Below the pieces are notes generated by a model that saw nothing but the letters and a program-made list of their open reading frames with translations, searched no databases and was not told the origin of the DNA. This document shows positions 5,119 through 53,706 of a stretch of 64,000 bases of DNA, one piece after another (positions within the stretch are counted from its first letter, which is position 1; each line of letters begins with the position of its first letter). Source of the DNA: Lingula anatina (lineage: Eukaryota; Animalia; Brachiopoda); the NCBI GenBank assembly GCA_051362555.1, contig CM120649.1:17560567-17624566 (forward strand). Reading direction: 5' to 3'. The translations under genes and the position numbers were made by a program.

Positions 5119-8100
5119 CTAAAACTGTAAATTCATGTCCACTACTGACATTGACATATGAGCTTTAAGTGTGAGATAATACACTGTCACCCGAGTGATA
5201 TATGCCATGAACACCTCGAGCGTCAGCGGTTGGGTTGTTGGTGGACTTATATCTGCCTCTGATGTACATATTGGAATGGCTAGTGCTGAGGGGAAAAGTA
5301 TATATTATTAGCTTGTTACGCCTTCATCAACTAGAAACGTCAAGCACTATATCATCTAGGCACACCCTCGCATGGTTTTGATTCATCCTTATAACGTCCA
5401 GCACAATAAAGAACACCCATTACTAATTTCCTGTTAACGTTACATACACCTTACCTACCGGGTTGCTTGTAGCACTTTCGCTAGACAAACAGGTTGACAG
5501 TTTAAAGAACTGACTTCGTATCATATTTTTTGTGAAATTAAAACCCTTTACCTCCACACCTCAGTGGTCTCCCGGACCAAGTCAAATTTCCCAGACATCT
5601 TCTTTGTGTGTCTCCACACAGACGCCCATAGTCAGGGAGACACCTGTATCTCACTACTGAACCCATAGTGAAGTTCCCTGAAAATTTTGCGCTTATCCCG
5701 TTTTCGGGTGGTGGACAACCTGGAAGAAGAGACAACAGGGCAGGATAAATGTCATACAGGGCGCTTTTACTCTTGGATTTCCAATGGAAATTTTTCCATT
5801 TTCTTTAACTTCTTTTTTTACATATTTAACTTTACGGATTACTTTATCCAAAACGTTGAGAAATCACGATCTATTACTGGCTTTAGACTTATAATTTTTA
5901 TTTTTATGCCGCTGAGCTTATCCGGAATTCTCTTACTTTGGATAACAAGGATTAACTATTATATTCCTCTACAAGTTTGATTTGGTAAAAAAGATTTTGA
6001 TGGCTTGTTTTATCTTAAAGTGAACTTTACCTACTGAGTATTGTCATATACATTTTAAGTGAATAGGAACTTTGTGTTTTATTGATCTTTATATAAATGA
6101 ATGTACGATTTTGGATGATACTTCAATCTGAATACCAATTAAAATTATTTTGTCGATACACCAGAACATTATCAACAGTAAATGTCTGCAGAGCATGCCC
6201 GTGGAGATGCTTACTATACTGTTGCTCTAAATGGTTGTCACACCGTCACGAATTTGGCTTTTTAAAAATGGCATAGCAATGTCTATGTTCATATTTTGGA
6301 TTCCGTCTTCCCTAATCAATGCAGTTTGACAATACCCAGGTCAAATATGAGCACATGTCAACGGATGGCAGCTCCGAAGTTAAGTTAAGGTGTGAGGGGT
6401 ATGCGAAAAGAAGTTACTACTGGCTTTAAAGGGATATTTTTGCCTTCATACAAAGTGGATTGTTGGGGAAGATGAGATCTGACCTCCACCAAACTTCAGA
6501 GAAAGCCGTGCCAGATCTGACTGACTCTGAACATAGGGATCAGATAGCTGCAGTCAATAAAACAAAATGGTCTCATGAAACCCGACACTGCCAGAGGACT
6601 TGTTTCAAGGTGAACTGTTGATAGAATACACACACTGCCCGCTTGGTTACCGCTTTTTCTAAGTGAAGTCAATATTCTGTTGCCAAAAGCCCTGATATGA
6701 ACCCGACTGATTATCTTCGAGATAGTTACAAATAGGTTTCCTATTACATGTGCCATATTTAATACTTACTTAAATTTGCCTTTTCTTTGCATCTGTTCCA
6801 AGCTTCATTAACACATTGCAGATCAACGGCTGTGTCAAACAGCTGAACGCAGGATAGTCGTTCATTGAAAACACGATCGTCTTTTTTTCTTTTACCAATC
6901 ACTAAGCCCATGCCTGTTTTTAGTCGAAACTGTCCCAATGTGGAAGTTATTTTGTTAAAGACATGAGAATTCAATCTTCCAAGCCCAATCATGGCACTAC
7001 CAGTGGCATAATCGTATTGCACAATAACTTTGTGCCAAGTGTTGACAGTGAACGCATCTGATAATTTAATTGTGTGGCTTTTCGATGATAAACCATGAAG
7101 ATTGACGTACAGTGTGTTCCACTCGGGAAACAGCCAGACATGGGAACCCCTTGCTTCTGACTCTGTACTGGTATACTCAAACAGACCACAAGGACGTTGT
7201 TCTTCAGGATAGATTAGGAATATCAGAGTAAAACCTCTCACGGCCAATCCAGGATTCCCGGGCACCACCATATGTGATCCATTGACTCTAGAAAAACGTA
7301 GGGCATGAGCGCTTCCGTACGGACCGGAAGCTGGCGTTATATTATAGAGGGTGCCATTGTGACAATTTCCACTCAGGTCGGCGCCAAGACTGTTTGCATC
7401 AAGTGGCCAGAAAGCTGCTGGCTTTACATCCCCTAGAAGATAAAATCATCTCACGTTAAAACACAACGAATCATTGCTTTTATATACAGGGTTATAAGTA
7501 ATTATGCTACAAATGAGCTTGGTAAATGAATACATGTAGTCAGATTTTATAATGCCTTTAGTTTTCCCTTACGAAAACTTCCAATATGAGCCCTGTAGGT
7601 CTCTATGGGACTATTTGGGAATTCTGCAGGACGTTCTTAAGAATTCCCTTGTAGGGCATATGACCCACAAGACTCTGTAGGATTACCTATTGGGTCGTAT
7701 AGGACATTACTGGATGTCATACATGTATATATACATATGCGACCGGTCTAGCACGGAAATTGTAGCCTTTAGGCAATTGTCACTCTCGTAAATCATTGAA
7801 ATAACCACTTAGTGTAAAACATTTATTTGCTAGGATAAAGAAGGCTCTAGCTGGAGTAAAAGTTACTGAACGCCACCTTACATTGTATATACTGGTACCG
7901 GGGGGTACACGTCTGTTCATGGTGTGTTGGGACATATGCACTGAGTAGAAAAAATTTCAGGTCATCATTTATTTCGAAATGGTCGAATGGAACCGAGATT
8001 TAATTACTATGCCCCTGCAAGGACGACGCGTGGGGAGGCATGTGAGAGGCAGCGAGACCATGATAGGATTAAGCGGTCTTCCTTTCATGTAGAATCCGCC

Positions 8101-15920: not shown

Positions 15921-17814
15921 GTCATGATGGTGATGATAATATTGTAACGCGACGCGGCCGTCCGCCTCGAGTCGGCGACGACACCCCGACGCGGTGTGGG
16001 ATTGATGTTGCCTGTACCTTGGGGAAAGTCTATCCCCAACCTTCGGAAATAAAAAAACATGTATTACATTTCCAATATGATTATTAAATCTCCAAACATT
16101 GAATACAAAAATTCATGCAATATAAACGTGACTTATGGCCACAATAGTTCATGCATTTTCAAGTATCCTTTGACGTGACTTATGGTCATTAAAGTTCATA
16201 AATTTCAAATGTTGCGCGCGACGACAGCATCTGGGTAGTAAAACGAAGACAACGAAGACATTTCTGGTAGCGTCGTGGCTTGCGTAGTCTTCTTATGGGT
16301 AGCGCAGCGGTTCCCGTAGATCGCGTATCTTCTCATATGGATTATCGTACGTGGTCAATCTTATGGTAGCGTCGTGGCTCGCGTACTCTTCTTATGGGTA
16401 GCTCAGCGGTTCCCGTAGATCGCGTATCTTCTCATATGAATTACCGTACGTAGTCTTCTTATGGTAGCGTCGTGACTCGCGTAGTGTCACTCATCTCCGT
16501 GGTGCTGTCCGTTCTGTAATTCTCTTTTCAAGATGATGTCCTCATGGTAGGGAGTTCATACCGCATCGCACGGCCGCAGTCGCTAGGGGAATCCAAGTCA
16601 GCTCTCGGTGTGCACCCTCTCCCGACAGCCCGATTCCAGCTTCACCAGCTCTGATGTGGATGCGGCGATACTCTCTACCAGAAATGCGCAAGGGTGCGGG
16701 TCAAGTGATACCAACTCAATACTGACAATCTTTCCGGTCACCAGTGACGAGGGCGCGGGGGATCGCCGCGGCCTTCAAACCAATCAGTGGAGATCTTGGC
16801 GGCGCTGAAACCCTTTGACTCGGGACCAGTGATCGTTGGCACCGAAAGAGCAAGGTTAATCTTCGCATATCACAAGCCCACATTTTCCACTCCCTGAGCA
16901 CCGTCTGTTCCGTGTGAAATCTCCGAACTCGCATGGGCGGGGACGGGGGTTCGCAGGGAAGCACCGTAAGGGATCGGCCCGCTACGGCCTTACGTCCCGT
17001 GGCAGGGGTTGGACAATCTTCACCACGTCTCCGTTTCTAAGGTCACAGTCGGCTGGCATCCACTCGACTCCTCCGGATGGACACACTGAACTAAAGAAAC
17101 AAAAGCAAAATCTGCCCCTTCACACGGGGTAACTCGACTCCCTTCACACGGGAGGAACACTCTTGGGCTGGAACTCGGCATCAGACCCAAGTGGACGTCC
17201 GCTCTACTATGGCGCCCCGGACCCGGCCGGCTTTTCACCCGGGGTCGTCATACACAATAATTGCAACATCCTTGGCACAGCTCTACCAAGGGGTCCCAGA
17301 CCGTTATGCTGCATAAGCCCATGGCCCGGAAGACACTGAAGAGGTTCCGCCCAGCCAACTGTTAACTCAAAGAAACTCAAATCACGTTGATTAGTAACCT
17401 TAACCGGAGAGTAACTCTCCCACTATGCACTGTGCTAAACACTGATTATTCAACTATGAAATTTACTTCTTACAATGGTTTTATATCTTAGCATTGCCTA
17501 CACTAGCTAGAGAAATTTAAAGAGGTCCCTAACTCCCTCTGAAAGACTCACTATGCCGACCTTGTCTATCCATAGCCGACATAGCTCGCCGGCGTGCATA
17601 ACATTATTTCCTTAAAAACCGCCCTCCCGTACACAGTCTTTAAACTTTAGATAAATTCGGTTAAATCTCTTCCCCCATATACTATCGTAACAACTTATCT
17701 TTCGTACACTGAAATCCTACCCCCATATACCAGTGTAACACTGAACACTGATTCCATTAGCAGATAACTCGCTGTAGTTAAACTAAGCTTAATTATAAGT
17801 GAGAAATATGACCC

Positions 17815-18372
17815 TACGACGTTATCCCTAAAACAACCAACATGCCTTAACTATGACTGAAATGACGTGGTCACTAGATGACAACATGGAATGACTGACG
17901 TTGTCTCTGACAACGACATGACGTTGTCCCTAAAAGACAACCTAACTTAACTATGACTGGAATGACGTGGTCACTAGATGACAACATGGAATGACTGACG
18001 TTGTCTCTGACGACAACATGACGTTGTCCCTAAAAGACAACCTAACTTAACTATGACTGGAATGACGTGGTCATTAGATGACAACATGGAGTGACGGACG
18101 TTGTCTCTGACGACAACATAACGTTGTCCCTAAAAGATAACTTAACTTAACTATGACCGAAATGACGTGGCCATTAGATGACAACATGGAGTGACAGACG
18201 TTGTCTCTGACGACAACATGACGTTGTCCCTAAAAGACATGTACAACCAAACTTAACTATGACTGGAATGACGTGGTCACTAGATGACAACCTAGTATAA
18301 TTGACGTTGTCTCCGAGGACAACATGACTTAACTATGACTGGAATGACGTGGTCATTTTATGACAACATGGA
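17815..18372. repeat. 100-bp tandem repeat (~5.5 units) inside the LTR; second copy at ~21582-22139
   Basis: ttaactatgac at 17847, 17947, 18047, 18147, ~18252 and ~18329. Confidence 0.92.
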
Positions 18373-19172
18373 ATGGTTAGAAAGGAAAATAAGCGAAAAT
18401 GAAATGATAAATAAAAACTGTCCTACGCTTAGCCTTAACTACTCACTGCTGTCAAGGAATGGACGGCTGTGAAAATAACGAACTTAAATAGTTACTGCTG
18501 TCAATAAAACAACTGCAGTAGCAATAACAAACTTAACTAGTCTGTGTCCATAATCGGACTCAGTATAAACTGTTCTAGTTAGTAATGAAAACTGGGGCTA
18601 CATGGGAATAAAGTTTCCGTAAAACTTCTACGTCAATCTAGCAACGGTTATAATCTACCGTTCAATCTACCAAACATTTAAATCTCTAAAATAAGACCCC
18701 CCCTAAAATATATGAGAAGAAAATGGAGCGGGCTAGCCCCTAGGGGCTGCCCTGACGCTTACTGATAACTCTCTTCTTAGTCCGGTCTCAGTCTGTACTT
18801 GAATCTGTAAAAACGCTCTCACTTTACTCGAATCTGTAAAACGCCCCCTTTCACACAGCGCGCCACTCTATTTATACTCTGACGCGGCGACGTCATCAGT
18901 CGCGCGAAGCACGAGCTTCGCGTACGGCGTAGGTCAGCATGAAGTGGCATCATATATGGCGGCTTCCATGCATCGTCGATGCACTGTATCGGTCGTTTTG
19001 TCATCTTTAGATTAAAGTTTCTTGCAATTAACGGAAATAACTGTAGTAGGGGGAATCAAATAAAGGTGGAGGGCAGGTACGTAACCGCTAACCCTTCCCA
19101 AGTGAATTTCTGAAAAGATTAGGTGAAAATGTTGTATTGGAATGCAAAACGGAGGGGGGGGGGAACGTTACA

Positions 19173-19708: not shown

Positions 19709-22699
19709 ATGTAACGCGACGCGGCCGTCCGCCTCGAGTCGGCGACGACACCCCGACGCGGTGTGGGATTGATGTTGCCTGTACCTTGGGGAAAGTCTAT
19801 CCCCAACCTTCGGAAATAAAAAAACATGTATTACATTTCCAATATGATTATTAAATCTCCAAACATTGAATACAAAAATTCATGCAATATAAACGTGACT
19901 TATGGCCACAATAGTTCATGCATTTTCAAGTATCCTTTGACGTGACTTATGGTCATTAAAGTTCATAAATTTCAAATGTTGCGCGCGACGACAGCATCTG
20001 GGTAGTAAAACGAAGACAACGAAGACATTTCTGGTAGCGTCGTGGCTTGCGTAGTCTTCTTATGGGTAGCGCAGCGGTTCCCGTAGATCGCGTATCTTCT
20101 CATATGGATTATCGTACGTGGTCAATCTTATGGTAGCGTCGTGGCTCGCGTACTCTTCTTATGGGTAGCTCAGCGGTTCCCGTAGATCGCGTATCTTCTC
20201 ATATGAATTACCGTACGTAGTCTTCTTATGGTAGCGTCGTGACTCGCGTAGTGTCACTCATCTCCGTGGTGCTGTCCGTTCTGTAATTCTCTTTTCAAGA
20301 TGATGTCCTCATGGTAGGGAGTTCATACCGCATCGCACGGCCGCAGTCGCTAGGGGAATCCAAGTCAGCTCTCGGTGTGCACCCTCTCCCGACAGCCCGA
20401 TTCCAGCTTCACCAGCTCTGATGTGGATGCGGCGATACTCTCTACCAGAAATGCGCAAGGGTGCGGGTCAAGTGATACCAACTCAATACTGACAATCTTT
20501 CCGGTCACCAGTGACGAGGGCGCGGGGGATCGCCGCGGCCTTCAAACCAATCAGTGGAGATCTTGGCGGCGCTGAAACCCTTTGACTCGGGACCAGTGAT
20601 CGTTGGCACCGAAAGAGCAAGGTTAATCTTCGCATATCACAAGCCCACATTTTCCACTCCCTGAGCACCGTCTGTTCCGTGTGAAATCTCCGAACTCGCA
20701 TGGGCGGGGACGGGGGTTCGCAGGGAAGCACCGTAAGGGATCGGCCCGCTACGGCCTTACGTCCCGTGGCAGGGGTTGGACAATCTTCACCACGTCTCCG
20801 TTTCTAAGGTCACAGTCGGCTGGCATCCACTCGACTCCTCTGGATGGACACACTGAACTAAAGAAACAAAAGCAAAATCTGCCCCTTCACACGGGGTAAC
20901 TCGACTCCCTTCACACGGGAGGAACACTCTTGGGCTGGAACTCGGCATCAGACCCAAGTGGACGTCCGCTCTACTATGGCGCCCCGGACCCGGCCGGCTT
21001 TTCACCCGGGGTCGTCATACACAATAATTGCAACATCCTTGGCACAGCTCTACCAAGGGGTCCCAGACCGTTATGCTGCATAAGCCCATGGCCCGGAAGA
21101 CACTGAAGAGGTTCCGCCCAGCCAACTGTTAACTCAAAGAAACTCAAATCACGTTGATTAGTAACCTTAACCGGAGAGTAACTCTCCCACTATGCACTGT
21201 GCTAAACACTGATTATTCAACTATGAAATTTACTTCTTACAATGGTTTTATATCTTAGCATTGCCTACACTAGCTAGAGAAATTTAAAGAGGTCCCTAAC
21301 TCCCTCTGAAAGACTCACTATGCCGACCTTGTCTATCCATAGCCGACATAGCTCGCCGGCGTGCATAACATTATTTCCTTAAAAACCGCCCTCCCGTACA
21401 CAGTCTTTAAACTTTAGATAAATTCGGTTAAATCTCTCCCCCCATATACTATCGTAACAACTTATCTTTCGTACACTGAAATCCTACCCCCATATACCAG
21501 TGTAACACTGAACACTGATTCCATTAGCAGATAACTCGCTGTAGTTAAACTAAGCTTAATTATAAGTGAGAAATATGACCCTACGACGTTATCCCTAAAA
21601 CAACCAACATGCCTTAACTATGACTGAAATGACGTGGTCACTAGATGACAACATGGAATGACTGACGTTGTCTCTGACAACGACATGACGTTGTCCCTAA
21701 AAGACAACCTAACTTAACTATGACTGGAATGACGTGGTCACTAGATGACAACATGGAATGACTGACGTTGTCTCTGACGACAACATGACGTTGTCCCTAA
21801 AAGACAACCTAACTTAACTATGACTGGAATGACGTGGTCATTAGATGACAACATGGAGTGACGGACGTTGTCTCTGACGACAACATAACGTTGTCCCTAA
21901 AAGATAACTTAACTTAACTATGACCGAAATGACGTGGCCATTAGATGACAACATGGAGTGACAGACGTTGTCTCTGACGACAACATGACGTTGTCCCTAA
22001 AAGACATGTACAACCAAACTTAACTATGACTGGAATGACGTGGTCACTAGATGACAACCTAGTATAATTGACGTTGTCTCCGAGGACAACATGACTTAAC
22101 TATGACTGGAATGACGTGGTCATTTTATGACAACATGGAATGGTTAGAAAGGAAAATAAGCGAAAATGAAATGATAAATAAAAACTGTCCTACGCTTAGC
22201 CTTAACTACTCACTGCTGTCAAGGAATGGACGGCTGTGAAAATAACGAACTTAAATAGTTACTGCTGTCAATAAAACAACTGCAGTAGCAATAACAAACT
22301 TAACTAGTCTGTGTCCATAATCGGACTCAGTATAAACTGTTCTAGTTAGTAATGAAAACTGGGGCTACATGGGAATAAAGTTTCCGTAAAACTTCTACGT
22401 CAATCTAGCAACGGTTATAATCTACCGTTCAATCTACCAAACATTTAAATCTCTAAAATAAGACCCCCCCTAAAATATATGAGAAGAAAATGGAGCGGGC
22501 TAGCCCCTAGGGGCTGCCCTGACGCTTACTGATAACTCTCTTCTTAGTCCGGTCTCAGTCTGTACTTGAATCTGTAAAAACGCTCTCACTTTACTCGAAT
22601 CTGTAAAACGCCCCCTTTCACACAGCGCGCCACTCTATTTATACTCTGACGCGGCGACGTCATCAGTCGCGCGAAGCACGAGCTTCGCGTACGGCGTAG

Positions 22700-23389
22700 G
22701 GGCCGGTTTCACAAAGCAGTAGTTAGTTAGCGATCGGTAGTTAGCCTCTCGCTAGTTAAAGTGCCGTTTCACGAAGCAGTCGCTAGTTCTCTCGCTCGTT
22801 ATTTTCTCGTTGTTACCATGGATATTTAACGACTGGTCAGACCAGTCGCTAACTCTAGAGTTTCATCGTACGCATGCGTATTGAGTGAAATAAAAAGGTT
22901 GCTTAGTTACCGTTGTCTGTCGTTTGTCTTTGTATCCAATATGGCGGCTACTTTTCTTGCTATCCGTACCGCCAGACGGCAACGTAGACTACGACGTTTT
23001 CATGAAAGGCAGAATCTATTAGAATATACACACGATGATGCAATTTACGAGAGGTTGTGCCTAGCTGTGACAAAAAGAGCGGCAAAAAGGTGGTGGAGAT
23101 CCTTCTTTACGACGTCCTCAAAGCAGACGTTCTTATGCATTTTCAGCCACCAAAAATTGGAGAGTTAGTGCTTTCGTGACACTTTTACGCAAGAGTTCCA
23201 CTTCCGGCAGACGGTTTCGAGACTACGGTGAGTAACGAGAAAACTAACGACCGAACTTTACGACTGAACTTAGCGATGAGTTAACGACTGCTTCGTGAAA
23301 CACCCCTCGAAAATCGCTAAGTTTGCTCGTTAGCGAGGTAGTTCAGTAGTTAGTTGTTCTAACTAACTACTGCTTTGTGAAACCGGCCC
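22700..23389 (+). mobile_element. PIF/Harbinger non-autonomous element (~690 bp) inserted in the 5' LTR only
   Basis: About 30-bp TIRs gggccggtttcacaaagcagtagttagttag / ctaactaactactgctttgtgaaaccggccc. Absent at the equivalent site ~18930. Internal MAATFLAIRTARRQRRLRRFHERQNLLEYTHDDAIYER resembles a HARBI1-type transposase N-terminus. Confidence 0.88.
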
Positions 23390-39944: not shown

Positions 39945-41332
39945 CACACACTGGACAAAAGAAGTGTCACCCCTACTGAGCCAATACTATGGGGGAGATA
40001 AATGACTGTGGAATGATATGCTCCTGGTATCATTTTATTAACATCAAATTTCACAAAAAATCACAAAATGAGAACAAAATATACATTCTACCAAAATATG
40101 CAGTTTCAAGTCCAAAATTAGTACTTAGTGGCATAGCCACGTGACCTAATAATAGGTGCCAGTCTACGAAGCAAGGTTTCATGTAATTGTCTGATGCGTT
40201 CAGGACTTATGTTGGCCCAAGCATGAAACACTGAATAAAACAGAGTTTCTCTGCTGGTTAGACGGGCATTTGTGAAAAGTTTTGACGTATCATTCCACAC
40301 ATTTTCTATTATGTTTGCATCCGGACTCTGGGCAGGCCACATCACCCTGCGAATGTCCTGTTGGTCAAACCAATCATCAACTGCTCTGGGCCTGTGACAA
40401 GGAGCATTGTCATCCTGGTGAACAAATGAATAATTCCTGTCACCAAACATGTTAGTAATAGATGGTAGCAAGCCTGACTCCAAAACATCGATATATTTCT
40501 AGTGATTCATGTTTCCATTAACCACTATCAATTCGCCCAAGCCATGGATGCTGATGCAGTCCCACACCATGATGAATATGCTGCTCCGGGTTCGAAAATT
40601 CAGTGCATGTGGTTCAAATGCTTTACCAGCAGTTTGCCAGCATTTTACCCGTCTGTCATCAGAGGTCAGACCAAAGCGACACTCATCAGAAAAAAATATA
40701 TAGGACCAATTGTCATGAACTGTCCAGTTCCAGATCCTGTTGACCCTAGTTTACTCTACGTTGCCTGTTTTGTAACGATATAAGAGGTTTCAGTCTTGCT
40801 ACCCTGCTGTACACTCTCAGAGCATGTAACCGAATCCTAGCAATTTTCACAGACACATTCTTATGTGTGAAATTGTTCCACTGTGTTGTCAACTGACAAG
40901 CAGTGTCGAACTTTGACAACCTGGACATCAAAATCGGTCGTCGGTCTTCACGGCCAGTATTTTTTTCTTGAACGACCCATCAGAGGCAATTTGTCTCTTG
41001 ATCCAGTGTTTCTATACCGAGACCAGACCCTCTGCACGGTTCTGACTGAACAATTCAATTGTATCGATATTCTGACATTGCTTATATTCCGCCTCTTCAG
41101 GTTAATAACTTGCACCTATAACCGTTAGATAATTGCCTGTATCTTGCCATATTGGAGGAAGACAGGAATAACATTTGCTGTACATGTACAAGACCAACAA
41201 TACAATTCCATGGTATAGCGGTTTTATACTCATTAGTCACATTATAAGTAGACCAGGCATTATAAGTACCCAAGATCTGCCTACTTTTATTACTCTGAGG
41301 TAGGGGGTGACACTTCTTTTGTCCAGTGTGTG
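39945..41332 (-). mobile_element. Tc1/mariner (DD34E) DNA transposon, 1388 bp
   Basis: TIR cacacactggacaaaagaagtgtcacccc at both ends with TA TSD. The empty site gtactaggtgtccc is at ~39228. Confidence 0.95.
40118..41150 (-). pseudogene. Tc1 transposase, disrupted by frameshifts and stops
   Basis: Starts MARYRQLSN; contains YIFSDECRF, HQDDNAPCH...(34 aa)...SPDANIIENVW; ends RGYATKY. Confidence 0.9.
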
Positions 41333-45216: not shown

Positions 45217-46029
45217 CTGGAATTTTTCCACTGTCATAAGAAAGAGATATATGAACTGTCCGATAACATATATGAGGAAATACTGTAGTGATTTATTTCA
45301 ATAGGCCTACTGTGGTCAGGTTCTTCTTCTCCAGATGATACAACATTTATCATGTTTAATTCTATTTATTTCATACCGATAGCACGTATATAGTTTTTCT
45401 CTGAAAACATTGTATCTATTTATACGTGTATAGACAAGCGGGACTTTGCCATCATCCCCGCTGCCTAGTAGTAGGGGCCTACTAGGTGTCCCAGCAGTAA
45501 GGTTAGCTAATTAAGAATATACTGGCTGTGCTTGTTAAGTGCAATGTGCAGTTGTAGGTAGATTGTGAATGTGAATGTGAAGGCTTGTTTTCCACAAAAT
45601 TTTGATATGTGTCAGCGGTAATTTTGAACAGGGTTACGACAACGGACGCCCTTTTACAGCCTAATATTCCATACGCTGATAATGACATTTGTGTGAAGCC
45701 TTACAGAGTCACTCTAATTTCAATTAATCAAATAATTTCATTAAAAACTGTTAATCATTTTCGAAATTTATCACAAAACATTGACCTTTTGTTTATTTTA
45801 TTTGTCCATATTTATTTATTTATTTATATTTGGTCGGGGTGAAAGGTGAAGAAAATCTCCCTCTGGCAATTACCATGTAAAGGCATTTCAAAATATGCAT
45901 TACCTGTTTATCTGTGTCTGGTGCTTATCATGTGAATATAGAAAATGGATAATAACCATTCCAGGTGGACTGTGCAAACCACGCCTGCAGTAAGAGGTCA
46001 CTGTGTTTCCAACATACAGTCTCATAAGA

Positions 46030-49000
46030 ATGTACCCACTCCACAGGGCTGCAAAGAGTGGTGATATCAACAAAGTGCGGGGACTGTTAGAGACTGGAGC
46101 ATGGGACGAGAGGACGGAGGAATGGGGTGTAAGTTTGCCTGTCTTGAGATCAATAATGAAAAGTAGTTGCTCTCATACTACTTGATAGCTTTATGGAATA
46201 TAATTAGTCATTAAAATTAATATAATAAAATAAGGTATATGTATACGTGCTATTACAGAATGCATTTATAAATACCGAGTATATAACAGGTATTGCATTG
46301 AATAGAAGCTTTTTATATATCAGCTGAAAAACGATAAGCTTCATCTCCGATGTATTATAAACACCCCGTTTTCAAACACCGTCATAAAATAGACCTCCTC
46401 TACACTGCGATAATTATGGTGTTGAACGTCTGACATAAATCCTGGGGAACACTAATGTTGAATTAATTAGTAAATTGATCAATTAGATAATTTATTTATT
46501 ATGCTAATGCCGTGATAGGATATGAAAACAGTAGCTTCGGAGTAGTCATACTCCTTTTCATAACGCTGCTTATGGTGTAGACGCAACGTCGAATTTAGTC
46601 TTACCTGATCGTAAGGAAAAAACTACGGGCACACTTCTTAATGGTTTATATTTATTTATTCATTTATGTCACTGACATGTCGTAATAATGGTCCAATGAC
46701 ATAATCGTGGACCTAAAAACTTCTGCATCTTTAGGGTGGTTGGGCACCTCTTCATTTTGCTGCTGAGGGTGGTCACAGCGATGTAGCAGCTCTACTCATT
46801 CAGCACGGAGCTGATCCCTGCAGTACAGACGGGGTAGGTATATACATTTTATTTGAAATATATATGTTACATATGACAATGCATGAAACAGTTCTGACAA
46901 ATACACGCATCAAACGCCACGTCCACTTAATACATAACCAAAACGCCACACTCACTAACGCTGTCTGTATGCTGCTGTTAACATGGCAGTGTAGATCTAG
47001 AGATAGATGCACAACTAGAGGAGAGATTATATATATATACCACAAACATTTCCAACCCTATATTAAAACTGCATTTTATTTAATTTCATTTTAATATCAA
47101 ATTTATACATCGTTATTTTGTCTTTATGGTATATCGTTCATACGAAAACACTGTTCATCTTCAGGAGGGTAGTACACCTCTTCATAAGGCTGCTGAGGGT
47201 GGTCACAGTGATGTAGCAGTTCTACTCATTCAGCACGGAGCTGATCCCTGCAGTACAGACTGGGTGGGTATTTGTATTTTATTTGAAATATTTGTTATAT
47301 ATTGTAATGCATGAAACATAGTTCTGCCAATTACATGTATCAATCACAATGTCCTCTTAAATATAAACAAAACTCCACAATCACTGTCAAGCTGTCAATA
47401 TGCTGCTGTTATAAACATGGCAGTGTAGATCATGTAGACTGTTTCACAAATAAGTCAGAGATTACACCACAAACTTTTCAACATTTAATTAAAATGCATT
47501 TTATTTCAATATCAATTATACATCATGACTTTGTCTTTGTGGTATATCGTTAAAATGAAAATATTTGTATATATTTTTAGTTTGGACGTACACCTCTTCA
47601 TAAGGCTGCTGGGGGTGGTCACAGCGATGTAGCAGCTCTACTCATTCAGCACGGAGCTGATCCCTGCAGTACAGACGTGGTAGGTATATATATTTTATTT
47701 GAAATATTTGTTATATATTGTAATGCATGATACATAGTTCTGTCAATTACACGTATCAAACACAATGTCCTCTTAATATATAACCAAAACGCAAAACTCA
47801 CTAACGCTGTCTATATATATGCTGCTGTTATAAACATGGCAGTGTAGATCATGTAGACAGTTTCACAAATAAGACAGAGATTACACCACAAACTTTTCAA
47901 CATTTAATTAAAGCGCATTTTATTTTAATATTAATTATACATCATGACTTTGTGGCATATCATTAAATTGAAAGCATTGTGTATGTCTTTAGTGGGGTCG
48001 TACACCTCTTCATTATGCTGCTGGGGGTGGTCATAGCGATGTAGCAGCTCTACTCATTCAGCACGGAGCTGATCTCTGCAGTACAGACAGGGTAGGTATA
48101 TGTATTTTATTTGAAATATTTGTTATATATTGTTATGCATGATACATAGGTCTGTCAAATACATGTATCAAACACAATGTCCTCTTAATATAACCAAAAC
48201 TCCACAATCACTATCGAGCTGTGTTTAATATGCTGCTGTTATATACATGACAGTGTAGATCATGTAGACAGTTTCACAAATAAGACAGAGATTACACCAC
48301 AAACTTTTCAACATTTAATTAAAGCGCATTTTATTTTAATGTAAATTTTGCATCATGACTTTGTCTTTGTGGTATATCGTTAAAATGAAAACATTGTATA
48401 TGTCTTTAGCGGGTACGTACACCTCTTCATTACGCTGCTAATGGTGGTCACAGTGATGTAGCAGCTCTACTCATTCAGCTTGGAGCTGATCCTTGCAGTC
48501 CGGACGAGGTAGGTATATATATTTTATTTGAATATATGTTACATGTTGCAATGCATGAAACATAGTTCTGCATATTACATGTATTAAACACAATGTCCTC
48601 TTTTATTAAAATGTATAATCAAAACCACACTCACTAACGCTGTCCTATGCTGCTGTTATAAACATGGCAGTGTAGATCATGTAGACAGTTTCACAACTAG
48701 AAGAGAGATAACACCACAAACTTTTTCGACATTTAATTAAAATGTTTTATGTTAATATCAATTATACATCATGACTTTATCTTTGTGGTATATCGTTAAA
48801 ATGAAAACATAGTATATGTCTTTAGTGTGGACGTACACCACTTCATGACGCTGCTAAGGGTGGTCACAGCGATGTAGTAGCTCTACTCATTCAGCACGGA
48901 GCTGATCCCTGCAGTATAGGCTGGGTAGGTATATGTATTTTATTTGAAATATTTGTTATATATTGTAATGCATAATACATAGTTCTTCTAATTACATGTA

Positions 49001-51215
49001 TCAAACAAAATGTCCTCTTAATATATAACCAAAACGCAACACTCACTAACGCTGTATATAGGCCCTATATATGCTGCTGTTATAAACATGCCAGTGTATA
49101 TCATGTAGATTGTTTCACAAATGAGACAAATATTACACCACAAACTTTTCAACATTTTATTAAAATTCATTTTATTTAAATATCAATTATACATCATGAC
49201 TTTGCCTTTGTGGTATATCGTTAAAATGAAAATATTTGTATGTCTTTAGTGTGGACGTACACCTCTTCACTACGCTGCTGGGGGTGGTCACAGCGATGTA
49301 GCAACTCTACTTATTCAGCACGGAGCTGATCCCTGCAGTACAGACAGGGTAGGTATATGTATTTTATTTGAAATATTTGTTATATATTGTAATGCATGAT
49401 ACATAGTTCTGCCAATTACATGTATCAAACACAATGTCCTCTTAATATATAACCAAAACTCAAAACTCACTAACGCTGTCTATATATATGCTGCTGTTAT
49501 AAACATGGCAGTGTAGATCATGTAGACAGTTTCACAAATAAGACAGAGATTACACCACAAACTTTTCAACGTTTAATTAAAATGCAATTTATTTTAATAT
49601 CAGGTATACATCATGACTTTGTGGTATATCGTTAAAATGAAAATATTTGTATATGTCTTTAGTGGCGATGTACACCTCTTCATAACGCTGCTGAGGGTAG
49701 TCACAGCGATGTAGCAGCTCTACTCATTCAGCACGGAGCTGATCCCTGCAGTACAGACTGTGTGGGTATATGTATTTTATTTGAAATATTTGTTATATAT
49801 TGTAATGCATGAAACATAGTTCTGTCAAATACATGTATCAAACACAGTGTCCTCTTAATATATAACCAAAACGCAACACTCACTAACGCTGTCTATATAT
49901 ATATACATATATTTATGCTGCTGTTACCTGTATAAACATGGCAGTGTAGATCATGTAGACAGTTGCACAAATAAGACAGGGATTACACCAAAAACTTTTC
50001 AACATTAAATTAAAATGCATTTTATTTTTATATTAATTATACGTCTAGACTTTGTCTTTGTGGTATATCGTTAAAATGTAAATATTTGTATATGTCTTTA
50101 GGGTGGACGTACACCTCTTTATAACGCTGCTAAAGGTGGTCACAGTGATGAAGCAGCTCTACTCTTTCAGCACGGAGCTGATCCCTGCAGTACAGATGGG
50201 GTAGCTATACATATTTGTATTTGTAATGTATGTTTTATAGTGCGATACATGAAACTTGGCTCTGCTAAATACATGAATTCATCGCCACGTCCACTTAACA
50301 TATAACCAAAACGCAATATCCGCTATCGCTGTCTATATATGCTGCTGTTATAAACATGGCAGGGTAGATCAAGAAATAGTAGCACATCTAGATTAAGAGA
50401 GATTGTGCCACAAACTTTGTCAAACTTTTATTGTAAATGCATTTTATTTCATTTCATTTTAACATCAATTATACATCATGACTTTGTCTTTATGGTATAT
50501 CATTTAAATGAAAATATGGTGTATCTTTAGCGTAAGCGTACACCTCTTCATGAGGCTGCTAATGGTGGTCACAACGATGTAGCAGCTCTACTCATGTTAT
50601 TTACTCATCTTTTAAAGATGGTTTTAGTAAATAAATAAATATAATACAGTTGAGTTGGACGCCTTTTTATTGAGCTGCTGCAGGTAGGGATAGTCACAGT
50701 GACAGATTGCATGGCATAAACAATGGAAAATTTAAACGTTTTTATAATTTTTTATTAGCATTAAAACTACATGTGCACAGAAAAAGGCTAACTCTGACAT
50801 CTAGAGTTACTGTTCCGTACTTTGACATATGTAAATGTACTGTACTGGTTCGTTTTATATTAAATTTCATTACAACATTCATGTGTGTATTGTAGTATGA
50901 TAAACTTACCAGTACATGTGTACCAGAGAGAAACCAGGTGTTGGCAACACTTTTAAAGAAATTCGAGAATCGACTAGTACAGGTGAGCATACTTTGTTAC
51001 GTTATGTTAACTATTTAAGACATCAGGTCTTTTATCCAGGGAAAGGGGTTGATATATCCCTGTACGTGTGCGTGTACAATTTTTTTTTTTTGAAAATTCA
51101 GCCAGGGGATGTCCGACCCCTCTTAATCTGCCAACACGTCGATATTTCGTTCTCCACACATACGTGTTGAGGACAGTTAAAGCAAATTGTACTATTTTAG
51201 AACGCAAAGTACTAC

Positions 51216-51246
<31 letters not shown>

Positions 51247-52474
51247 TCAGAACAGCGCATGCAAATTTTAATTACTCAAATTGCACACGTCCACTTGCGT
51301 TATATAATTATATGTAAGGTTATAAAACGAGTCGAGTGCACAAGTAAAGCGACTCCATTAAATTAATGTCTGGGGTTCATTATTGTGAACTGAACAACAT
51401 GGCATACAACTCTCAATATATTGGTTCCCTGCCCATCAATTGCAGGTTCTTTATTGGTGATTACCGTAGCCAGATATATCAATGGTTTTGTGAAAATTGT
51501 CACAATGAAATTTATTGAATCGAGTTCATGAAGATTTTAAAAAAATATATCCCATCATTATTGGCAAGAGTGTAGGATATCTAGATTAGTTTTAAATATT
51601 AAAGGTAATTGTAATCCTTTATTTTCATCCAGATGATATATTTGTCAATGTTAATTTAGTCACTGAACACTGTTCAAAGATATATGATATCTGTTACCCA
51701 AAAGAATGCATGCAATGCAGCAAATAAGGAGTTTGGGGCGAAGGTTGACAATATCCTTATACATTCTACAAACACTAAAATATTACTTAATTTTTTAGGA
51801 GTCGGCAGCTAACAAAAGCTCTGTGTTATAACTTTATCTTCCAGAACTTCATCCTCATCATGTCTTTGGAACATGTTGCCAGTACAATGAATATTGTTGA
51901 GGCTAGTACTCTTTTCAAAGAAGACATGAGTCGCCATTTCCCAAGAGAACGTCATAACAAGAAGTTAGAAATGTTGAGGAATTGGGCAGACGCTTATGGA
52001 ATTAAATCTCTCCAAGAGTTAAAGAGGAGATTGGCGGAGGCAGGTTGTCTAAACTTGGCTGGTGAGTGATAGATATCTGAAAATTATGAGTACATGTACA
52101 GGTACTTCCATTTACTTGTAGGAATATTTGCATGTTTACCACGGCATGTTTAAGTTTTTAAAGCAATACTAGTATATATATCACATACATTTAAATGTTT
52201 TAATTAAACATACAGCAGTCAAAGGAACACCCACTATTAATAGATATACCTGTTCTATAGCGGCGGCTGCAAAGCACTATGCTGAGATCGTCAAAGAGAT
52301 TATGGAAATGCCCGACGAATGCTACCAAGCATTTTGTCAAGATCCCATGTCACACCGACACATGATATCATCGGCGGCCTCTCCCACAGAACAGAGATGT
52401 GAAATTAGGTATATATGATGCACAAGTGTGTGTGTAAACGTGTGTGTTTATGTGCGCCCGCGCGCGTGTGTAAA

Positions 52475-52518
<44 letters not shown>

Positions 52519-53706
52519 CCCTCGCTGTACTCAGTTGTTATATGCAAGTGTAAGTTACACAAAAACACTCGTCCCTACGTGAAAGAGAAATTTCGTTTCT
52601 TTTACTAAATAATGAGACTTATATTGGTTTCAGTATGGAGACCGAGTCGTACCAATACGATGCATTTCTGGTACATAGTAGTGATGACGGAAAGACCGTA
52701 GGAGGAGTGTGTGAGCAACTCGAGGCACGTGGTGTCCGTTGTTGTTACGCTCCACGTGACTTCACTTATGGGAAGCCCATCCCAGCATCCACGGAAGACG
52801 CATTTGAAAAATCCAAATTCATCCTGGTGGTATTTTCTGAAAACTTCATGAAGAGCTCTTGGTGTCAGTACGAAATGCACATGGCGGTACAGAAGACGGT
52901 GGATTCACGTCAGGACGTCGTCATTCCAATCCTGTTGGATTTCCCAGAGGAGAACCTCCCGCTTGGGTTTAAAACCATGAAATATATTTCAGTTCGACAG
53001 CATGACTTCTTACCCAAACTTGTTCAAACTATTGAAGGTACGTAATTAACATGGCAATCGTTCTATGTACATTGTACTGGTAAATCCAGTTAACCAAAGT
53101 AACCAGATACTGTGTGATAGAATGTCATGGATATCATGGAGGGTGGGCGGGTCTTGCATCAGTGTAACGAAACTAAGGGTAGTATAAAATTAAGTCCGCC
53201 CTCCATTCAGTTAGAACGGTTAGGGTTAGCCTGGCCTAAATGGTTCAGTACCTAGGGCGAGGTTTACCTGTATAAATGAAGAAGAAGAGGTCTCTCCTAA
53301 TGGGGGACCCTCTGTCACGTTACACCGGTTTGTTTATAAACCCATTTTTGTCTTACTTAAGAAACTGATCTATTTCCTCCATCCTCTATATGCATTTGCC
53401 TTTATGAGGTCGTGCAGAAATTAACGGTAATACACCAGTAGTATAAACACTGTTTCTGTTATTATTATGAAGGTGAGCCGGCTGGTTTTGGGTTTTGGTT
53501 TTGTTAATAAATTCGTGTTTTTTTTTTCTTCAGGCTCCGGCACCGAGCCTCTTTACGGCCAGCTTCTGCTCGAAAATCAAACATTGAAACTAGAGAATGA
53601 AGTGCTGAAAGCGGAACTTGAAGACACGCGCCAACGATTGGCAGATTCCACCACTTTGGTCAAAAGACTTCAGGCGGCAATGCCAGCGACAGGAGTTCCC
53701 AGTTAG
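46030..53706 (+). CDS. Ankyrin repeat - Death-fold - TIR - coiled-coil protein, ~672 aa. Exons 46030-46128, 46735-46833, 47165-47263, 47581-47679, 47993-48091, 48410-48508, 48826-48924, 49250-49348, 49663-49761, 50102-50200, 50896-50982, 51845-52061, 52261-52408, 52634-53037, 53534-53706
   Basis: Ten 99-nt phase-0 ankyrin exons (TPLHxAAxGGHSDVAALLIQHGADPCSTD) and a capping exon. Death-like KLEMLRNWADAYGIKSLQELKRRLAEAGCLNLA. TIR YDAFLVHSSDD...RDFTYG...SENFMKSSWCQYEM. Heptad tail LLLENQTLKLENEVLKAELEDTRQRL. All junctions are GT-AG and phase-compatible; the 51845 acceptor is the least certain. Confidence 0.85.
46700..50600 (+). repeat. Tandem exon+intron units of 412-439 bp (10 units), one ankyrin repeat each
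   Basis: Exon starts at 46735, 47165, 47581, 47993, 48410, 48826, 49250, 49663, 50102 and 50531. The introns are mutually alignable. Confidence 0.95.
50531..50705 (+). pseudogene. Truncated (50531-50595) and decayed (~50650-50705) ankyrin pseudo-exons
   Basis: RKRTPLHEAANGGHNDVAALL ends abruptly without the usual donor. LSWTPFY*AAAG..SHSD follows a cag acceptor. Confidence 0.65.
53160..53327. mobile_element. Small MITE-like element in the last intron
   Basis: Inverted ends cagtgtaacg / cgttacaccg with internal ggttagggttag. Confidence 0.45.

Follow-up and report, generated by a model that had tools for sequence, protein, structure and literature searches.

We describe a tandem array of ankyrin exons (46735-50600) in a stretch of 64,000 nucleotides (nt) from the genome of the brachiopod Lingula anatina (assembly GCA_051362555.1, contig CM120649.1, positions 17,560,567 to 17,624,566), hereafter the window, to which all coordinates refer. 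The array is probably the ligand-binding part of an intact gene, which likely encodes an intracellular sensor of non-self, and germline diversification of its binding face has likely come from selection at five codons of each repeat together with exchange of DNA between units of 420 bp. The gene has one exon per repeat and an open model of 672 amino acids (aa) with a TIR domain, amino-acid change is in excess at codons 33, 1, 3, 8 and 11 of the repeat, and family transcripts are spliced in frame. It has long been asked how invertebrates, devoid of antibodies, keep pace with their parasites.

When both strands of the window were scanned, the ankyrin exon turned up ten times, always on the forward strand and never on the reverse (copies starting at 46735, 47165, 47581, 47993, 48410, 48826, 49250, 49663, 50102 and 50531), in exon plus intron units of 412-439 bp. 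Copies 1-9 are stop-free exons of 99 nt preceded by AG and followed by GT, all of them phase 0-0 with near-identical splice sites, so that one repeat per exon in a single phase applies to the nine full exons. Exon 3 matches the Pfam 33-residue TPLH repeat (PF00023) with 39.3 bits (cut-off 21.1). Tandem Repeats Finder reports a period of 416, 9.1 copies, 83% matches and a score of 4610, far above chance, and the introns differ by 14.4% on average; both figures bear out the high similarity of framework and introns noted in a preliminary description of this DNA. The same description had proposed a 99-nt phase-0 exon per repeat within a unit of about 420 bp, which stands for copies 1-9 and falls for copy 10. 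This last copy matches the exons at 51 of 56 nt in its first part and at 5 of 34 in the remainder, homology being lost after codon 21, and it has an intact acceptor and no cognate donor. It is therefore a broken copy that in this haplotype must be skipped or cryptically spliced. Behind it lies a degenerate, stop-bearing ankyrin remnant (~50650-50700) that matches the exons at 25-31 of 48 nt. Since the units differ by 6-22% from unit 3, collapse or expansion of the array during assembly is unlikely. No second copy of the gene was found within the 64 kb, and a 24-nt ankyrin exon pattern had 0 matches in metagenome contigs. Introns between repeats are also present in vertebrate ankyrin genes.

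The gene model comprises 15 exons, all with GT-AG introns and matching phases, that add up to 2,019 nt and 672 aa with no internal stop, in the order N-cap, nine ankyrins, C-cap, divergent predicted death domain, TIR and coiled coil. Its parts, with the evidence for each, are the following.

46030-46128, forward strand: first coding exon (ATG and N-cap ankyrin, 99 nt), phase-0 donor GTAAGT; RNA depth.
46735-46833, forward strand: ankyrin exon 1, 99 nt, phase 0-0; copy scan, gene model, RNA depth.
47165-47263, forward strand: ankyrin exon 2; copy scan, gene model, RNA depth.
47581-47679, forward strand: ankyrin exon 3; copy scan, PF00023 match, gene model, RNA depth.
47993-48091, forward strand: ankyrin exon 4; copy scan, gene model, RNA depth.
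48410-48508, forward strand: ankyrin exon 5; copy scan, gene model, RNA depth.
48826-48924, forward strand: ankyrin exon 6; copy scan, gene model, RNA depth.
49250-49348, forward strand: ankyrin exon 7; copy scan, gene model, RNA depth.
49663-49761, forward strand: ankyrin exon 8; copy scan, gene model, RNA depth.
50102-50200, forward strand: ankyrin exon 9, donor GTAGCT; copy scan, gene model, RNA depth almost nil.
46834-50530, forward strand: nine homologous mosaic introns of 313-340 nt between the ankyrin copies.
50531-50595, forward strand: broken tenth copy, likely skipped or spliced from a cryptic donor.
50650-50700, forward strand: degenerate ankyrin remnant with in-frame stop; read depth nil in the bin 50614-50795.
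50896-50982, forward strand: C-cap exon, 87 nt, phase 0-0; RNA joint, homologous stretch in the relative P0106.
51845-52061, forward strand: exon for the core of the divergent, predicted death domain; RNA loose ends, profile and fold matches obtained with P0106.
52261-52408, forward strand: exon for the last predicted death-domain helices and a linker; homologs P0081 and P0106 (E ~1e-19, 152 proteins compared).
52634-53037, forward strand: TIR exon; Pfam match (PF13676).
53534-53706, forward strand: last exon, predicted coiled coil and stop; weak coiled-coil Pfam matches below cut-off, homologous tails in Lingula relatives.

An in-frame stop lies upstream of the ATG at 46030, and the N-cap exon has a weak Pfam Ank match (E 0.074). 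The C-cap acceptor was set at 50896 because the RNA joint 46840->50917 has 14 letters between; this excluded a phase-2 join of copy 10 into an exon at 50913, and RNA likewise set the next exon at 51845, excluding a start of the death-domain exon at 51799. No signal or membrane segment is obvious by eye in the model, where the N-cap stands at the very start, so that the protein is likely cytosolic.

The codons that vary among the repeats are 33, 1, 3, 8 and 11, and the lists of residues at codons 1-3, 8, 11 and 33 given in the preliminary description were exact on re-reading. The assignment of these codons to the concave face rests on published numbering: the accessible sections of PMC8415598, which uses the same numbering, place the concave face at positions 32-12 and the specificity positions at 1, 3, 8 and 33, and in those of PMC4308713 the ANK-N5C library randomises scaffold positions 2, 3, 5, 10, 13 and 33, equivalent to our codons 33, 1, 3, 8, 11 and 31. 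Here natural evolution alters five ankyrin positions that are also randomised in protein design. Identity among repeats is 0.88 in the framework and 0.32 at the variable positions (~0.78 overall), and convex-face codons (e.g. 16, 23, 26, 27, 29 and 30) show zero change across copies. The equation of the variable codons with the binding face and the positions randomised in DARPins, made before, agrees with these sources for 33, 1, 3, 8 and 11. It does not extend to codon 12, an x in the DARPin motif quoted there yet GGT in all ten copies, nor to codon 2, which the designed scaffold keeps as a framework Gly and which differs in three of the ten.

The homologous introns provide a built-in neutral yardstick for this variation, as well as a record of exchange. 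Pairwise nonsynonymous difference (pN) is 0.454 at the six codons of the preliminary description and 0.048 elsewhere, with 0.144 for the introns and 0.111 for framework synonymous sites. Nucleotide diversity at the four codons chosen a priori (1, 3, 8 and 33) is 0.442 vs. 0.087 elsewhere (permutation p 0.00015, 40,920 sets). Our own codon model yields for this a-priori set a ratio of nonsynonymous to synonymous rates (omega) of 5.7-6.6 on the intron tree and of 4.8-7.8 on exon and star trees; the framework remains at 0.42-0.56 on the three trees and the fitted synonymous rate is close to the intron rate (0.87-1.05). Omega is 4.6-10.7 for codons 8 and 11, which are distant from the splice sites, and a site mixture selects codons 1, 8, 11 and 33 with posterior >0.99. 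A neutral exon evolved along the intron tree had four codons this variable in only 2 of 3,000 runs. We also simulated a harsh null (omega 1, 1.8-fold rate, rate variation and free exchange; 643 simulations), and the per-codon comparison suggested earlier (omega ~5-8 at the a-priori set against ~0.5 for the rest) retains under it a p of ~0.01. With the coarser optimiser of that script, twice the log-likelihood difference (2dL) is 40 for the real data and 45 at the simulated maximum. The support for positive selection on the variable codons thus stands at roughly the 1% level, and the agreement with positions specified beforehand strengthens it.

Exchange between units can be read from the introns. 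Their divergence falls to 10.0% among introns 2-8, whereas introns 1 and 9, at the edges, diverge most (~17-24% from the rest). A home-made PHI-type test gave p values of 0.004 and 0.005 for introns 2-8, and such mosaic introns point to exchange of DNA between units, as the preliminary description had proposed. The mosaicism and the broken copies at the 3' edge would fit unequal crossing-over and conversion. Both processes, acting between homologous introns, may keep the framework alike while changing the number and order of repeats and leaving broken copies at the 3' edge. As about three quarters of the unit is intron located between codon 33 and codon 1, most crossovers would create new beta-turn pairs without a frameshift.

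Downstream of the array, within the same open model, the TIR exon passes the cut-offs of two Pfam families (PF13676, 73.7 vs. 28 bits; PF01582, 58.4 vs. 21.3 bits), which agrees with the earlier placement of the array on a TIR protein. Among structures in the PDB the nearest are TIRs of Toll-like receptors (TLRs; best E 5.6e-18, compared with 7.6e-5 for MyD88). The glutamate of WCxxE is retained; TLR2 has it too, so that this residue does not distinguish a SARM1-type NADase. Word-index protein searches with the TIR exon gave no match, a weak negative. The segment between array and TIR is taken here as a divergent death domain. A profile of ten sequences of this segment has the Fas death domain as its best PDB match (E 0.0093), and an AlphaFold2 model of the equivalent segment of P0106 (pLDDT 91) matches, out of 48,161 chains, the Fas/FADD death-domain entry 3ezq_B most closely (Z 9.0, root-mean-square deviation 3.1, 89 aligned), with many further death folds below it. 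These moderate scores point to a six-helix death fold. A search of the ESM Atlas with the death-like exon retrieved nothing above 0.76.

The gene belongs to a multigene family that, like the predicted death domain and the broken copies, was absent from the preliminary description. A TIR search returned 9,522 matches, and the best 150 of them, on which our view of the range beyond Lingula is based, were examined. Among 152 proteins that included these, a repeat profile built from the window identified six with ankyrins, all from Lingula anatina, as is a seventh, P0154. Relatives with the same layout include XP_013395417.1, XP_013388856.1, XP_013396261.1 and XP_013405319.1, among others. These RefSeq models share with the window gene the domain order, the homologous death-like segment and tail, and the variable repeat positions, and differ in bearing only automatic names (ankyrin-3, uncharacterized). 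The first of them (P0002) aligns along the whole model with 47.6% identity over 733 columns, P0008 has the same layout, and both vary at codons 1, 3, 8, 11, 12 and 33. The window TIR is 50% identical to that of its best Lingula relative, and a close ortholog was not found among them. The annotated number of repeats ranges from 1 to 14 in these automatic models, which may be incomplete. In a tree of 42 repeats those of the window group with XP_013395417.1 (100/100), apart from the P0008 type, and are set apart by a single branch in 76% of the bootstrap trees; resolution within is low. In a single-sequence AlphaFold2 model of P0002, helix pairs recur every 33 residues (pLDDT ~90) and the part beyond the repeats is poor, and a word-index search with the P0002 tail recovered only P0002 itself (a weak negative). 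P0007 has eroded TIRs, two in tandem, and P0151, probably a prediction artefact, fuses parts that by eye are transposon, SET-like and reverse-transcriptase-like to the death-like and TIR part of the family. Full-text searches retrieved no description of the family by title or abstract, although Gerdol et al. 2018 (Lingula immunity) and 2017 (TIR proteins) may already list ankyrin-TIR proteins; nor is it described in the passages checked of PMC5094078, PMC8195603, PMC8662601, PMC6321704 and PMC8683736.

Transcription of the family, on which the preliminary description had made its proposal depend, is evident from spliced, in-frame ankyrin-exon joints in RNA of the same species label. Nine runs were chosen by that label, and four were mapped on 45700-51150 at 88% likeness, with 6-25% of each run (16, 10, 374 and 8 reads mapped, 408 in total). 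Depth follows the exons, the few intronic reads being in runs X1 and X4, and in the three stranded runs the first mates of exon reads are on the minus strand, which fits a forward transcript. Loose ends behind 50982 continue into 51845. All 12 joints listed with their letters, out of 48, keep the frame, one of them representing a substitution within an exon; an exon of 99 nt is implied by nine, and by the others one of 93, 102 or 66 nt or a change of register. Junction residues absent from the window occur in these joints, and hence the expressed pool is wider than this haplotype.

Some details of the splice sites deserve mention. The ankyrin donors are GTAGGT in six of nine exons and GTGGGT in two, and each of these holds a second GT four bases on, whose use would cause a frameshift; it is not used in any of the 12 listed joints. 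In run X7, 5-6 reads (joint 47674->48858) run from the end of one ankyrin exon straight into codon 12 of the following one; 33 nt are thereby lost in frame, and with them the start of the TPLH helix. Codon 11 ends in AG in exons 1, 2, 6 and 8, after a pyrimidine-rich stretch, so that this variable codon may create an internal splice acceptor; the reads may equally well stem from a paralog with a genomic deletion.

If the array is the diversified sensor proposed above, its ankyrin stack would bind a fast-changing ligand, most likely a protein of a parasite or microbe, and binding would cluster the protein through the coiled coil and the TIR. The death domain might then recruit partners of the IRAK/Pelle or FADD type, so that the sensor would be fused to its own MyD88-like adaptor.

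A number of results weigh against this reading. The sample for the selection tests is nine short exons of one haplotype, and the nominal chi-square p values (1e-5 to 1e-10) are too optimistic: under the harsh null the observed 2dL of 28 was reached in 6 of 643 simulations and 20 in 27, and 228 passed the nominal 5% line. The neutral-exon test fades if exons mutate faster (p 0.045 at 1.5-fold and 0.36 at 2-fold), and in its amino-acid-count forms p is only 0.045 and 0.37. In the PHI-type test, p is 0.0046 and 0.061 when whole units 2-8 are used, and 0.013-0.22 under four settings that include all nine units. Pfam Death matched neither the window exon nor ten aligned members, either because the domain is too divergent or because it forms a separate subfamily; a Z of 9 is below the caution line of the tool for helical folds, and Foldseek found no match at E 0.001 with the P0106 segment model. 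The window TIR has Tyr at the position of the TLR2 BB-loop Pro, and in two close relatives, P0106 and P0081, the TIR is eroded and lacks WCxxE. For the joints beyond the death-domain exon, splice signals and homologs are the basis. Finally, only 2 of the 408 reads are at least 99% alike to the window and those over N-cap and C-cap carry several variants, so that almost all of the reads come from other alleles or paralogs.

Beyond germline change, a single allele might yield many receptors per animal by skipping subsets of phase-0 exons, as a natural DARPin library, but we regard this as unlikely. The uniform phase and splice sites of the nine exons would allow it, the broken tenth copy has to be skipped or cryptically spliced, and brown-algal ROCO genes are reported, in the available part of PMC11378527, to splice their one-repeat exons alternatively. 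In two runs, reads join exon-1-like or exon-2-like sequence directly to the C-cap exon (46840->50917 and 47261->50928/50930). However, the joint reads are 88-99% alike, with other C-cap and N-cap letters, and alleles or paralogs explain them equally well; for that reason what looks like skipping, for instance from exon 2 to C-cap, cannot be taken for alternative splicing, and long joints were rejected as proof of it. Several joints run backwards, which no skip can do, and they reveal how ambiguous the placement of reads among near-identical exons is. The phase-0 symmetry would follow from simple tandem duplication too. Similarly doubtful is a broader version, a class of cytosolic receptors free of a nucleoside triphosphatase (NTPase) and made of ankyrin, death fold and TIR, recombined by skipping of exons as well as in the germline, with codon 11 toggling an internal in-frame acceptor, that would give each animal a DARPin-like repertoire wired to Toll and cell-death signalling.

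The function and the selection may also be other than proposed. The array could bind a fast-evolving protein of self or of a symbiont and the death-TIR part dampen Toll signalling, so that the product would serve as a decoy, in allorecognition or as an adaptor that can be tuned. The BB-loop proline, missing in P0002 and P0008 as in the window, and the eroded TIRs of the two close relatives would be in line with this, as would the role in allorecognition of fungal genes of the same repeat regime (accessible sections of PMC13449251); but the window TIR clears the Pfam cut-off by a wide margin, retains WCxxE and has TLR TIRs as its nearest PDB structures, and we hold this alternative to be improbable. 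Very improbable, in our opinion, is that the variable codons are just unconstrained surface positions of a unit amplified not long ago, and that local mutation hot spots and gene conversion make them look special. Synonymous differences (pS) are raised there as well (0.33 inside the six codons vs. 0.11 elsewhere, with pN/pS within them of only 1.38), CpG touches codon 3 in six of nine copies and codon 8 in five, and the harsh null does match the observed statistic in ~1% of runs. Nevertheless, codons 1 and 8 are more variable than every 3-nt window of 315 intron columns, codon 11 is free of CpG in all nine copies, and the fast positions match the set specified beforehand and recur in paralogs, whereas convex-face positions are unchanged.

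Further features were noted elsewhere in the window. A direct duplication of 2,991 nt (15943-18933 and 19710-22700, 99.93% identity), with internal tandem repeats of 99 nt and 100 nt, is either very recent or an assembly artefact, and a dense patchwork of related dispersed repeats (70-91% identity) covers 12100-37600. An open reading frame (ORF) at 493-2031 contains 17 copies of a 45-nt Pro/Thr-rich repeat followed by a short Cys-containing module and a hydrophobic stretch; by sequence it is a mucin-like membrane protein, with no Pfam match. On the reverse strand there are an exon-like ORF with a weak Laminin_G_3 match below cut-off (6762-7445) and a fragment of a DDE_3 transposase (40121-40498).

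Among the closest known systems is MyD88, an adaptor composed of a death domain and a TIR. The window gene shares the order of death fold and TIR, and differs by the ankyrin array before them, the coiled coil after them and a TIR nearer to those of TLRs. In the comparison with the P0106 model, MyD88 entries reach Z 4.3-4.5 as against 9.0 for Fas/FADD. A MyD88 ortholog would have no sensor domain and a TIR of MyD88 type; the window gene has a sensor, and its TIR is placed elsewhere by search scores. With Dscam, invoked as an analog in the preliminary description, the shared trait is a set of tandem duplicated exons on a recognition protein. The analogy is poor, because reads of the window family join ankyrin exon to ankyrin exon in chains, whereas arthropod Dscam picks one exon per cluster (PMC11378527, in the part available); moreover, our model is without obvious signal or membrane segment. 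The designed ankyrin libraries (DARPin and ANK-N5C; accessible sections of PMC4308713) have the same N-cap, identical frameworks, C-cap and variable positions, and differ in that the window array is natural, with a handful of variants per haplotype and a codon 2 that varies too.

The brown-algal ROCO-LRR and NB-ARC-TPR genes of Ectocarpus (PMC3341825 and PMC11378527, available parts) resemble the window gene in that each repeat has an exon to itself, the binding face shows diversifying selection and introns contain inactivated exon copies, to which copy 10 and the remnant at 50650 correspond (none is reversed in the window). Splice variants are reported for these algal genes in the same part of PMC11378527. 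Their repeats are LRR or TPR combined with ROC-COR or NB-ARC, whereas the window gene has ankyrins, with ROC-COR and NB-ARC not found. The analogy to repeat-shuffling fungal NLRs, also made in the preliminary description, holds well with regard to concave-face selection and exchange between repeats. The Podospora genes (PMC4986451 and PMC13449251, in the sections available) likewise have near-identical repeats, a few positively selected concave ankyrin positions and concerted evolution by repeat exchange, and polymorphism in repeat number is established for them. Along these lines, the concave-face selection typical of the fungal HIC NLRs is supported here (p ~0.01 under the harsh null); their published cut-offs of 0.7 and 0.85 are T-REKS Psim values, another measure than the plain overall identity of ~0.78 in the window. 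The fungal proteins carry NACHT or NB-ARC, whereas in the window gene the sensor is N-terminal, the effectors are a death fold and a TIR, each repeat has its own exon and the introns are homogenised too. There is no room for a NACHT/NB-ARC NTPase in the 672-aa model, and neither it nor P0002 or P0008 has a match to one, so that the window gene is a member of neither the fungal NLRs nor the brown-algal receptors. These comparisons taken together suggest that the repeat-shuffling, binding-face-diversifying design of both is now found in an animal gene family, on an NTPase-free chassis with the sensor fused to a death-TIR module.

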